Below are positions 8,712-11,994 of a stretch of DNA of 64,000 nucleotides, piece after piece. Positions within the stretch are counted from its first letter, which is position 1; every line of letters begins with the position of its first letter. Location: contig CACDHZ010000001.1 in the NCBI GenBank assembly GCA_902552705.1, forward strand, positions 33,594 through 97,593, in the 5' to 3' direction. This DNA comes from an uncultured Pelagibacteraceae bacterium. Its GTDB lineage: Bacteria > Pseudomonadota > Alphaproteobacteria > Pelagibacterales > Pelagibacteraceae. Made by a program: the position numbers and the translations under genes. The notes beneath the pieces were generated by a model. The model was not told the DNA's origin. It did no database searches and saw nothing but the letters and a program-made list of their open reading frames with translations.

Positions 8712-8796
8712 GGGCGAATGGCGGAACTGGTAGACGCGCACGACTCAAAATCGTGTTTTGCAAGAAGTGAGAGTTCGATTCTCTCTTCGCCCACCA
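8712..8796 (+). tRNA. tRNA-Leu (CAA)
   Basis: Acceptor GGGCGAA/TTCGCCC-A-CCA, anticodon arm CACGA-CT-CAA-AA-TCGTG, long variable arm, GTTCGA T-loop. Confidence 0.96.
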
Positions 8797-8802
8797 AAAA
8801 TT

Positions 8803-10506
8803 ATGCAAGTAAATAAAATTACTAATTTATTAGAACTGTTTTACGAACAATATAAGAGACAAAATAAAAAAAATTTTTTCTTAGAGTCTTTAAAGGAACC
8901 AAAAAAAAAATATTCTTGGGAAGAAGTTTATATAAATATAATTAAATTTTCTGAAGAAATATCAAAATACATAAAAAAAGGTGATAGATGCTTGCTGATT
9001 TCTGAAAATAGACCTGAGTGGATGATATCAGATCTTTCAATTATGCTTTCAAAAGGTATAACAGTTCCAGCTTACACGACATATACTGAGAGAGATTATG
9101 AGTATATTATCAACGATTGTACTCCAACAATAATCATCGTTTCGGATGAAGTTCAATATAGTAAAATAAAAAATATAATTCCTAAAAAAGATTTTATAAA
9201 AAAGGTTATTATTTTTGATGATATTTCTGAAAAAGAAAATCCATTAATTTTAAAAATAGATAATATTTTTGAAAAAAAGAATTATTCAGAAAAAATATTT
9301 TCTGAATTAGATATTACAAGAAAAGATGTTGCCTGTATTATCTACACATCAGGTACTCAAGGAAATCCAAAAGGAGTAATGTTAAGTCATGGTGGAATAC
9401 TTAATAACTGTGAGGGTGCTCATGGTTTATTAAAAACTTTTATTTCTGAAAGACCTAAATTCTTAACATGGCTTCCTCTCTCACATTCATATGAGCATAC
9501 AGTTCAATTTGTACAAATAATTGTAGCTGCTAGAGTGTATTATGCTGAGAGTATTGAAAAATTGATTAAAAATATGAATGATTGTTCTCCTGAAATTATG
9601 ACAGCTGTACCAAGATTTTATCAAAATTTGCATCAAAAAATTAATACAGCTTTTAACAAGGCGAAAGGATTAAGAAAAATTCTGATAAATCAAACAATAA
9701 TTTTGGGAAAAAAAAAGTTAGAAAAAATCAAACTTAATTTAATCGAAAAAATAATCAATTTTTTTTGTGATATATTAGTAAGAAAAAAAATTAAGCAACA
9801 ATTTGGTGGATCTTTAAAAGCATTTGTTTCGGGAGGAGGTGCTTTAGATAAAGAAGTTGGATCTTTTTTAAATGCAATTGGATTACCTACACTTCAGGGG
9901 TATGGTTTAACTGAAACTTCGCCTGTGGTGAGTTGTAACTTTATAGAAAATATTCGAGTTGAAACTGTAGGAATACCCTTTAAAGGTAACAGTGTAAAAA
10001 TTGCAGATGATGGTGAAATATTAGTTAAAGGTGAAAATGTTATGTTAGGCTATTGGAAAAACGAAGAAGAAACTAATAAAGTTTTAAAAGATGGCTGGCT
10101 ATATACTGGTGATATAGGAGAGTTTGATGGAGATTATCTTAAGATAACTGATAGAAAAAAAGATATTATTATTACACCAGGAGGAGATAATATTTCTCCA
10201 GTAAAAATAGAAAATGATTTGAATAAATTAAATTTTATTGAACAAAGTTTAATTTTTGGCGATAATAAACAGTATTTAGTTTGTTTAATAGTTTTAAATT
10301 CTGAATATAAAGATATTTCTAAAGATGAAATCCAGAAAGAAATAGAAAAAATAAATAAAAATTTATCCAAAATAGAAAAAATAAAAAAATTTATTACTAT
10401 TAAAGATCAATTTACAATTGAAAATGGTTTAATGACACCAACTTTAAAATTAAAAAGATATAAAATAATTAATAAATATAAATTAGAAATCGAAAAACTT
10501 TATTAA
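8803..10506 (+). CDS. Long-chain fatty acid--CoA ligase (AMP-binding); start moved to ATG 8803
   Basis: IIYTSGTQGNPKG, GYGLTETSP, WLYTGDIG, TPTLKLKR; the track start (8758) lies inside tRNA-Leu. Confidence 0.92.
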   Translation: MQVNKITNLLELFYEQYKRQNKKNFFLESLKEPKKKYSWEEVYINIIKFSEEISKYIKKGDRCLLISENRPEWMISDLSIMLSKGITVPAYTTYTERDYEYIINDCTPTIIIVSDEVQYSKIKNIIPKKDFIKKVIIFDDISEKENPLILKIDNIFEKKNYSEKIFSELDITRKDVACIIYTSGTQGNPKGVMLSHGGILNNCEGAHGLLKTFISERPKFLTWLPLSHSYEHTVQFVQIIVAARVYYAESIEKLIKNMNDCSPEIMTAVPRFYQNLHQKINTAFNKAKGLRKILINQTIILGKKKLEKIKLNLIEKIINFFCDILVRKKIKQQFGGSLKAFVSGGGALDKEVGSFLNAIGLPTLQGYGLTETSPVVSCNFIENIRVETVGIPFKGNSVKIADDGEILVKGENVMLGYWKNEEETNKVLKDGWLYTGDIGEFDGDYLKITDRKKDIIITPGGDNISPVKIENDLNKLNFIEQSLIFGDNKQYLVCLIVLNSEYKDISKDEIQKEIEKINKNLSKIEKIKKFITIKDQFTIENGLMTPTLKLKRYKIINKYKLEIEKLY

Positions 10507-10625: not shown

Positions 10626-10655
10626 TTGACATCACCTATATAAAAAAATAAAAAT
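10626..10655 (+). promoter_or_regulatory. Putative sigma70 promoter of the small basic peptide gene
   Basis: Perfect TTGACA at 10626-10631, 17-bp spacer, TAAAAA(T) at 10649-10655 (imperfect -10). Confidence 0.55.
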
Positions 10656-10706
10656 AACTTAATAGCGAATCACTTTGATTCGTTTAACTTTAACAGGGAG
10701 CTAAAG

Positions 10707-10775
10707 ATGGCTAAAAGAAGAAAAAAAGCTAAGAAAAAAGCTAAGAAAAAAGCTAAAAAAAGAAGAAGAAGATAA
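10707..10775 (+). CDS. 22-aa Lys/Arg/Ala-rich protamine/histone-tail-like peptide (not in ORF track)
   Basis: MAKRRKKAKKKAKKKAKKRRRR*; AGGGAG Shine-Dalgarno at 10695-10700, 6 nt before ATG; flanked by a promoter and a terminator. Confidence 0.78.
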   Translation: MAKRRKKAKKKAKKKAKKRRRR

Positions 10776-10795
10776 ATTTTTTAGTACTCTTCATT

Positions 10796-10838
10796 AAAAA
10801 CGCTTCTCATAACTTTTGTGTGAGAGGCGTTTTTTTTT
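10796..10838. terminator. Bidirectional rho-independent terminator
   Basis: AAAAA-CGCTTCTCATA...TGTGAGAGGCG-TTTTTTTTT hairpin with A and T tracts on either side, between the convergent peptide gene and carD. Confidence 0.85.
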
Positions 10839-10847
10839 GAAAAATTT

Positions 10848-11726
10848 TTAATCTTCAGAGCTAATTGGTTCAGAAACTGATGTTTCAGGCTGAATATTTT
10901 TAACAGGAGCGACAATAGGTTTTGTCTGACCATCTTGTTGATTTCTTTTAAGTGCCTTATCTAATTTTTTTTGCGTATCCTCTAATGATATGCCTAATAT
11001 AATTTGAAATTCTGTTAAAATTCTTTCATAGGCTTTTTCAAAAAGTTGTCTTTCACTGTAAGATTGATCTACCATTAAATCATCTCCTTTGTTTAGATCT
11101 CTAACTACTTCAGCAAGCTCATAGATTTTGCCTGAAGAAATTTTAGCTTCATATTCTTGTGCTCTTCTACTCCACATAGATCGTTTTATCTTTGGTTTAC
11201 TTTTTAAAATAGAGATACACTTAGTAACTTGATTTATTGTTGCTAAGGGTCTTAAATGTGATTGTTTATTTACAGGAACCATTCCATTAGCTTTATCTTT
11301 TTCAAATTTTAGAACATATGTTTCAACATCAATTCCACCAATATTTATTTTTTTAAATTCAATAATTTGACCAACACCATGTTTTGGATAGACCACATAG
11401 TCTTTAACTTTATATTGCTTTTTTTCAGTCTCTTGTTTTTTTACTTTTTTAATTTCAGGTTTAATTTCATTATTTTTTGAAATTCTTAAATTATTATTTT
11501 TAGCCTCTATTTTTTGTACAACAGCACTTTTAGCAGAAGTTTTTAAATTTTTTTTAGTCTTAATTAATTTAGATTTAATTTTGATATTCTTTTTTTTAAC
11601 TACTTTTTTTTTATTTTTTTTGTTTACTATTAAAGTAGTTTTTTTTATTTTTTTCTTTGATTTTTTTTTAAAGATTTTCGTTAAAATATTTTTCGTACTT
11701 ATTTTCTTCATTTTTATGTTCTTCAT
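10848..11726 (-). CDS. carD: CarD/CdnL-family RNA polymerase-binding factor with long Lys-rich N-terminal extension
   Basis: [15 protein letters not shown]-interaction domain, MWSRRAQEY (conserved Trp), [10 protein letters not shown]; start uncertain (11726 or 11711, overlapping fdxA). Confidence 0.92.
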
Positions 11727-11994
11727 GATCCACAGGTGGATCTTTTTTTACAGTTATGTTGGGCCAAATTTCAGAATACTTTCTGTTAATTTCTAGCCAT
11801 TTTTCATTCCCAGATTCAGTATCTGCAACTATAGCATCGACTGGACATTCTGGTTCACAAACGCCACAATCTATACACTCATCGGGTTTAATTACAAGCA
11901 TATTTTTACCTTCATAGAAACAATCAACAGGACATACTTCAACACAGTCCATTAATTTACACTTTATACATTTATCATTTACAATGTAGGTCAT
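11668..11994 (-). CDS. fdxA: Ferredoxin (FdxA-type, two Fe-S clusters)
   Basis: [18 protein letters not shown] and [12 protein letters not shown] motifs; conserved fdxA-carD order. Confidence 0.95.

Follow-up and report, generated by a model that had tools for sequence, protein, structure and literature searches.

The window analysed here, a stretch of 64,000 nucleotides from an uncultured Pelagibacteraceae bacterium, carries between two larger genes a compact unit for a very small and very basic peptide. Upstream, and outside the unit, lies an AMP-binding acyl-CoA ligase gene recognised by profile search (8758..10506, plus strand); downstream, the convergent carD/cdnL gene (10848..11726, minus strand; PF02559, PF21095) provides a constant synteny marker. 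On the plus strand between them there are a sigma70-type promoter, with a -35 hexamer TTGACA (10626..10631) separated by a 17-nt spacer from a -10 hexamer TAAAAA (10649..10654) and a predicted start at ~10660, a 5′ stem-loop predicted by folding (10664-10684), a Shine-Dalgarno (SD) sequence AGGGAG (10695..10700) and an open reading frame (10707..10775) for the 22-residue polycation MAKRRKKAKKKAKKKAKKRRRR, which is composed of one M, four A, 11 K and six R and has a net charge of +17. An intrinsic terminator visible in the fold (10796..10838), with T-runs on both sides, follows the ORF and is probably common to the mini-gene and the convergent carD. Promoter, hairpin, RBS, ORF and terminator had been described in the first-pass annotation, and a re-reading of the sequence finds each of them in its place.

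The ORF stands out within its genome, since its K+R fraction of 0.77 is the highest among 8002 ATG-started ORFs of 15-100 aa (the runner-up reaches 0.59); it also has GGAG before its start, a feature of only 49 among 900 crudely called ORFs. The fold of 10655-10845 has a z-score of -3.69, and none of 200 shuffles was equally good. The promoter consensus by itself is within chance (5 sites versus 10.7 expected) and the terminator is unflagged by a consensus terminator scanner; because such evidence alone is insufficient, the promoter and terminator calls rest on conservation. The TTGAC upstream is kept across loci, lying 37-41 nt before the CGAATCA box discussed below in 89 of the 90 loci having this box, and a purine-rich SD is visible ahead of the start codon in 94 loci compared. 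The terminator stem varies in sequence between genera, with its pairing maintained in the alignment as read by eye.

The DNA downstream of carD was taken from 100 genomes, in four of which the contig ends too early, leaving 96 informative loci. A polybasic ORF facing carD is intact in 95 of them, across 17 genera and two families of the SAR11 order, and the remaining locus (L053) has a frameshift within an A-run. ORF length goes from 19 to 58 aa in 14 genera of Pelagibacteraceae and from 40 to 91 aa in three genera of the sister family, growing through in-frame K/A/P repeats, with the long forms consisting of AAPKKK/KPAKKK repeats. In a pattern scan of a genome collection, among the matches listed (at least 120), the polybasic peptide is found in 72 of 73 matches from the SAR11 order, the exception (L336) being frameshifted within its A-run, and in none of 47 from outside the order. 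By kinship, these matches assign the window to Pelagibacteraceae. The A-run frameshifts of L053 and L336 are probably homopolymer assembly errors, although slippage-prone runs of this kind could give phase variation. A comparable ORF is absent within ~1.5 kb downstream of carD in 20 other alphaproteobacterial genomes, one per family, chosen among 127 with a CarD match, a comparison that is a synteny test only. As for the sister family, the gene upstream of the mini-gene differs from the acyl-CoA ligase, and the N-terminus of the long forms is a conserved stretch of acidic and hydrophobic residues (MEELKVIFA / MEDLKILFA type) that the short forms lack and that may serve as a helix for oligomerisation or targeting. 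Separately, an upstream in-frame extension of the ORF (‘ELK’ through the RBS) was considered and set aside, the distance from hairpin to SD and the spacer varying in all phases.

The pattern of substitutions is that of a protein-coding gene under purifying selection. Among 32 nearest-neighbour pairs drawn from 83 unique ORFs, 58 codon changes are synonymous and 42 non-synonymous, against an expected synonymous share of 0.23-0.29 (p<=2e-9, with pairs that are partly non-independent), which corresponds to a rough dN/dS of 0.2-0.3; changes at codon positions 1, 2 and 3 number 25, 34 and 71. The first Arg codon is AGA in 55 cases, CGT in 10 and CGA in three, and the stop codon is TAG in 43 and TAA in 40. 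The structured ends of the unit, and the fact that Lys codons are common in an A-rich genome, would also suit a functional RNA whose ORF is a by-product of A-rich sequence. Nevertheless, the synonymous excess, the AGA/CGT/CGA and TAA/TAG swaps and the in-frame length changes all speak against it, as do the SD and ATG kept across two families; unlike the ORF, moreover, the non-coding spacer from stop to terminator occupies all three phases (34/14/33). We find this reading hardly credible, and a stand-alone coding unit, with SD, frame and K/R/A composition kept downstream of carD among relatives of two families, is borne out as the first-pass annotation had proposed. In our estimation, the peptide is very probably made.

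Metatranscriptome contigs in four runs from four studies span 10659-10835, which agrees with the expectation of a transcript; the runs were picked by this very stretch, relatives are the source of many contigs, and since neither strand nor level can be read from contigs, they do not rank the expression of the gene. In three contigs of run X4, adapter sequence stands directly before 10659, at the promoter-predicted start, which is a hint only. The observed coverage speaks for a short, independent RNA. In these runs the acyl-CoA ligase gene was for the most part free of RNA contigs, a comparison in which contigs cannot show absence. A second pile of RNA contigs, present in all four runs, lies at 11621-11747 over the end of fdxA and the start of carD, near a small hairpin (11727-11742), and could be either a short RNA or low-complexity mis-mapping. 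CarD itself has a lysine-rich N-terminal extension of ~100 aa ahead of its RID domain (11400-11726, minus strand).

Over the 83 unique ORFs the residues are 52% K, 20% A, 18% R and 4% P, without any hydrophobic segment, and this K/A/P-rich composition with repeats is of the H1-tail type. It is not the Arg-dominated composition of protamines, given the six R versus 11 K of the 22-mer and the 18% R overall. Short and long forms have no family in Pfam, NCBIfam or PDB, the sole match being at E=0.52 for the 85-aa form. The Hc1 and HC2 (PF07382) profiles are unmatched by the peptide forms, and no Pfam family, the winged-helix domain of linker histone H1 included, was found for the 22-aa form or for six longer ones. 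In turn, an Rfam search of the unit returned no family and a weak minus-strand match to RF01814 (E=0.07), which is explained by the complementarity of the start region to that element. In the ESM Atlas, the 85-aa sister-family form is found among unnamed clusters, entered as a hypothetical protein, and the nearest named cluster (score 0.90) carries HC2 on 23% of its members, a lead only. Exact database look-up of six peptide forms found none of them, a result that is uninformative if short proteins are excluded from the database. The idea that gene callers would miss the gene holds for the short forms as far as these six look-ups go and fails for the 85-aa form, already entered as a protein; the companion idea that trypsin would destroy the peptide stands, the pieces predicted from the sequence being of at most three residues.

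Peptides of the bS22/mS38/eL41 type have a similar size and charge and Arg-rich ends, a likeness which, together with the strong SD, would fit a tiny lineage-specific ribosomal protein, the alternative also contemplated in the first-pass annotation. That alternative is weakened by the search for PF08213 (bS22/mS38) in five genomes, which gave nothing at E<=1, by the missing Pfam, NCBIfam and PDB matches, and by a length that ranges from 19 to 91 aa through repeat expansion instead of being near-fixed for an rRNA pocket. By contrast, a second unannotated basic ORF, starting MGYPKKHRGRRK (source-genome contig C11, 13256-13339, minus strand), is exactly 27 aa in 5/5 family genomes, as expected of a pocket-filling peptide; a search of one sister-family genome did not find it. 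With its fixed length and N-terminus, this ORF is more plausible as a small ribosomal peptide than the mini-gene, for which we regard the ribosomal reading as very unlikely. A free length with a fixed chemistry would rather point to a non-specific polyanion binder than to a peptide of a ribosomal pocket. Against a nucleoid role for the mini-gene, SAR11 already encodes three HU/IHF-family genes, in 5/5 genomes.

The 5′ stem-loop is present as first described, but its reading as a plain hairpin overlooked the GcrA box inside. On its 5′ side CGAATCA (10666..10672, TGATTCG on the minus strand) forms a GANTC/CcrM site with the GcrA consensus, at ~+6 to +12 from the predicted start. Of 92 loci whose upstream sequence is long enough, 90 have this heptamer and one more has CGAATCG; the heptamer is retained even in genera where its pairing partner in the stem has changed or been lost. 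A second TGATTCG (10676..10682, plus strand) occupies the 3′ arm of the stem-loop, with an exact second copy in 25 of the 92 loci. In Caulobacter, according to the accessible text of PMC4647560, the GcrA consensus is TGATTCG/YGAKTCK and its occurrences fall either around -20 or between +2 and +30 relative to the sigma70 start. The SAR11 promoter is alike in having a YGAKTCK-type box within the latter interval and in that both proteins are encoded, GcrA in 5/5 genomes and a CcrM-like methyltransferase in 5/5 (E=2e-116 to 6PBD); it is unlike the Caulobacter regulon in that its box is a predicted one. Furthermore, GANTC methylation with a replication-linked gradient is described for Pelagibacter in the part of PMC9516812 available to us.

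None of the other 5808 7-mers with at least three G/C is as enriched between genes of the source genome as TGATTCG: 7 of its 11 occurrences are intergenic versus 4.2% expected, and once this locus is removed the count is 5 of 9 (p=1.5e-5). GANTC genome-wide shows a mild depletion only (0.85). Upstream of clpX, TGATTCG occurs in 25/25 genomes. Upstream of recA, a site is present in the 24 family genomes parsed, as TGATTCG in 10, TGAGTCG in six, CGATTCG in four and AGATTCG in four, a variation that mostly respects the GcrA consensus; over all loci parsed it is found in 27 of 30, the three without it belonging to the sister family. It should be kept in mind that clpX and recA have the same box yet are not chromatin genes, and that GcrA timing is known from Caulobacter rather than from SAR11. 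Some further details deserve mention: before clpP the motif is less strict (exact in 8/25), the TGATTCG sites of this candidate regulon lie on source-genome contigs C12 (6891 and 7585) and C8 (7698), and a TGATTCT fitting YGAKTCK lies ~100 nt upstream of an HU-family gene (contig C11, 3512). The GAKTCG site of recA directly follows a GAAC-N7-GTAC box, which we take to resemble an alphaproteobacterial LexA site. Taken together, CGAATCA is well supported as a real regulatory box by its conservation, the mini-gene is likely to be under GcrA control, and we infer that the box would time expression to replication in SAR11.

The SD is equally confirmed, and its first reading as a plain strong SD overlooked an antisense target at the same place. 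The start region of the mini-gene occurs a second time, letter for letter, in 5/5 complete Pelagibacter genomes, within a hairpin beside a LysE-family gene, and the context of a control pattern has no exact match listed in those genomes. This hairpin is the ‘rhtB element’ of Rfam, RF01814, with a score of 82.1 bits in genome G013 against a gathering cut-off of 55. Of 100 Pelagibacter genomes with a completeness of 90% or more, 94 have it (93 of 99 if the unpublished G244 is set aside), and it scores above the gathering cut-off in 93 of 101 genomes searched. The accessible text of Meyer et al. 2009 (PMC2704228) presents the rhtB element as a bulged hairpin whose role was unknown, perhaps regulatory or a terminator, and names no target for it; the partner locus found here is the same family, with the difference that its loop is now matched to the mini-gene mRNA.

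The 47-nt element exposes a 13-nt loop complementary to the SD, the spacer and the AU of the mini-gene. The perfect complementarity to the window extends over 19 nt (10696..10714, plus strand), running across SD, spacer and ATG and taking in codons 2-3. Cofolding with the mini-gene mRNA gains a net -19.7 kcal/mol and opens the entire RF01814 hairpin. Among 892 start regions the mini-gene gives the best duplex, at -37.9 kcal/mol versus a mean of -7.8 (sd 3.6), the next reaching -25.9. The deciding evidence is covariation. At position -1 of the mini-gene, A replaces G in 16 of 400 genomes, and a compensating U is found in the RF01814 loop of 12/12 such A-type genomes with both loci assembled (on recheck, four genomes had only the mini-gene and one only the element); no G-type copy of the element was found in the 15 A-type genomes rechecked, and the loop has C in 25/25 G-type genomes with both loci. 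On a tree of carD DNA (54 rows, one g9 row excluded) the A state requires five changes, three to six in bootstraps, of which at least two are forced by strong branches, a count that recombination could blur. Sequence complementarity and covariation thus describe a trans-encoded stem-loop whose loop pairs over the start codon, in the manner of HctA and IhtA, and the pairing between RF01814 and the mini-gene is very probably functional.

The partner is restricted to Pelagibacter as far as these searches go. Outside this genus the RF01814 model found no element, and neither synteny with the DUF2805 neighbour nor start-region patterns for groups g14/g12, g7/g8/g9, g19 and g5/g10 and for the sister family gave a convincing hairpin; six sister-family partner candidates were rejected, lying inside glnA or at other genes' own start sites. 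The element is absent from the source assembly, which is 72% complete and where its neighbour gene is missing too. No contig of RF01814 RNA was seen in the four metatranscriptome runs, in which a 47-nt RNA is easily lost.

An antisense RNA across the start region of a small peptide gene recalls type I toxin-antitoxin-like pairs, with the peptide as a membrane-active or growth-arresting polycation held in check. However, the peptide lacks a hydrophobic segment and the partner RNA comes from a distant locus; the gene belongs to the core genome as a single, syntenic copy, being kept in genera where no partner was found, and none of 63 pattern matches in viral contigs encodes a polybasic peptide. 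A toxin is, in our opinion, even a little less probable than the ribosomal protein considered above.

The position of the element opens a different question. In 36 of 37 cases a TANNNT box precedes it by 4-9 nt, in 31 it lies 6-14 nt ahead of a LysE-family ATG, and only 16 finish in a U-run, for which reasons the direction of control could run either way. LysE-family proteins export amino acids, including Lys and Arg. One could thus imagine the pairing reversed, or acting in both directions, with the mini-gene mRNA as a trans-acting attenuator of the exporter leader: ribosomes stalled on K/R codons would mask the start region, and otherwise the mRNA would open the hairpin of the lysE leader. 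The elements do form the lysE 5′ leader, the cofold does open the whole hairpin, and RNA of the mini-gene appears in contigs where that of the element does not, although contigs cannot rank levels. Against such an attenuator, the gene is order-wide while the element was found in one genus only, and Ala/Pro repeats, Arg-rich ends and the sister-family N-terminal extension are selected at the protein level, which a codon sensor would not need. The spacing from the stem GGA to the lysE ATG is, besides, long and variable. Finally, in 6 of 37 cases lysE does not follow directly, and the element stands before proC-like or distant genes instead; because the element persists there, it is simpler to suppose that the mini-gene is repressed. 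The displacement of the element from its usual downstream gene is noted in Meyer et al. 2009 too, within the text accessible (PMC2704228). We hold control of the exporter by the mini-gene mRNA to be improbable, and continue with repression of the mini-gene by RF01814.

Several known systems help to situate the mini-gene. Protamines are tiny, unstructured, Arg-rich peptides that pack DNA and carry terminal Arg runs. The SAR11 short forms are likewise tiny and unstructured, with ~+0.8 net charge per residue and terminal Arg runs, and they are unlike protamines in being Lys-dominated, devoid of Cys and bacterial. Chlamydial HctA (Hc1), as far as the available text of PMC4355289 goes, is likewise small, highly basic and presumed to condense DNA, and the stem-loop RNA IhtA, encoded in trans, covers its start codon with the loop. 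The SAR11 peptide is far shorter and matches neither the Hc1 nor the Hc2 profile; its pairing covers 14-19 nt including the SD, whereas that of IhtA is described there as 6-7 nt around the AUG, with the SD excluded (PMC4355289); and its host is free-living, without an EB/RB cycle and with a GcrA box. Bacterial regions resembling the histone-H1 CTD, such as the KPAA repeats of Pseudomonas AlgP and PhaF in the parts consulted of bioRxiv 2021.08.24.457604 and PMC12818456, and chlamydial Hc2 (PF07382), are similarly K/A/P-rich and of low complexity, with repeats variable in number between relatives, but they form extended tails that in most cases are attached to a protein having another domain, and the SAR11 peptide stands alone with 19-91 aa and Arg-rich ends. 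We commit ourselves to the view that the mini-gene would work like HctA/IhtA while belonging, by the tests reported here, outside the Hc1/Hc2, H1, protamine and bS22 families.

The same comparison supplies the main rival of a nucleoid function, in which the principal ligand would be RNA or polyphosphate and the peptide a polyanion counter-ion, an RNA chaperone or a granule organiser. The K/A/P/R composition serves this reading equally well and there is no DNA-binding fold; moreover, KPAA-repeat regions of PhaF bind mRNA and activate translation, and the KPAA repeats of AlgP bind and position polyphosphate granules, according to the sections available of PMC12818456 and bioRxiv 2021.08.24.457604, respectively. 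Nonetheless, the 22-mer has no second domain for RNA or granule targeting, and a GcrA/methylation box together with a dedicated antisense partner would, as we see it, better fit a replication-linked and dose-sensitive DNA binder. We therefore deem an RNA or polyphosphate ligand unlikely, and lean slightly towards DNA as the main ligand. Nucleoid condensation is our best inference from the K/A/P/R composition, the repeat-based variation in length and the two controls.

In the mechanism that we favour, sigma70-RNA polymerase and GcrA would fire the promoter depending on how the box is methylated, tying output to replication. The 5′ stem-loop and the terminator would make the mRNA short and stable, with a high output owing to the strong SD. 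The resulting peptide would neutralise DNA phosphates with no sequence specificity, selection acting only on charge, Ala/Pro spacing and Arg-rich ends and leaving length free. In Pelagibacter, the 13-nt loop of RF01814 would seed on SD, spacer and AUG, unzip into a duplex of ~25 bp and block ribosome loading, limiting a peptide of which too much would do harm, in the way that IhtA limits HctA. Considered as a whole, an H1-tail-like polycation that coats the chromosome under GcrA/methylation control, with an antisense cap in Pelagibacter, has in our estimation a little less than an even chance of being right. An elaboration of low probability would make of both loci a two-way RNA switch, where an mRNA rich in Lys/Arg codons produces a chromatin peptide timed by GcrA and methylation and, depending on its stalling state, also opens the LysE-family leader in trans.

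The literature found contains no description of the peptide, nor of a target of RF01814 since 2009, subscription papers and Additional file 2 of PMC2704228 lying outside the search, and the SAR11 GcrA regulon is unmapped in the papers found. SAR11 is a dominant bacterium of the ocean and has a minimal genome, in which one would not expect a core, unannotated and trypsin-invisible gene under two controls of its own. If the proposed reading is true, SAR11 would have a minimal chromatin peptide and RF01814 an assigned target; the mini-gene, clpX and recA would constitute the first small GcrA regulon of SAR11; and a free-living alphaproteobacterium would have converged on the logic of HctA and IhtA. 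Were the two-way switch also true, it would be an attenuator acting between distant genes and would couple nucleoid compaction to the basic-amino-acid (nitrogen) status of Pelagibacter.
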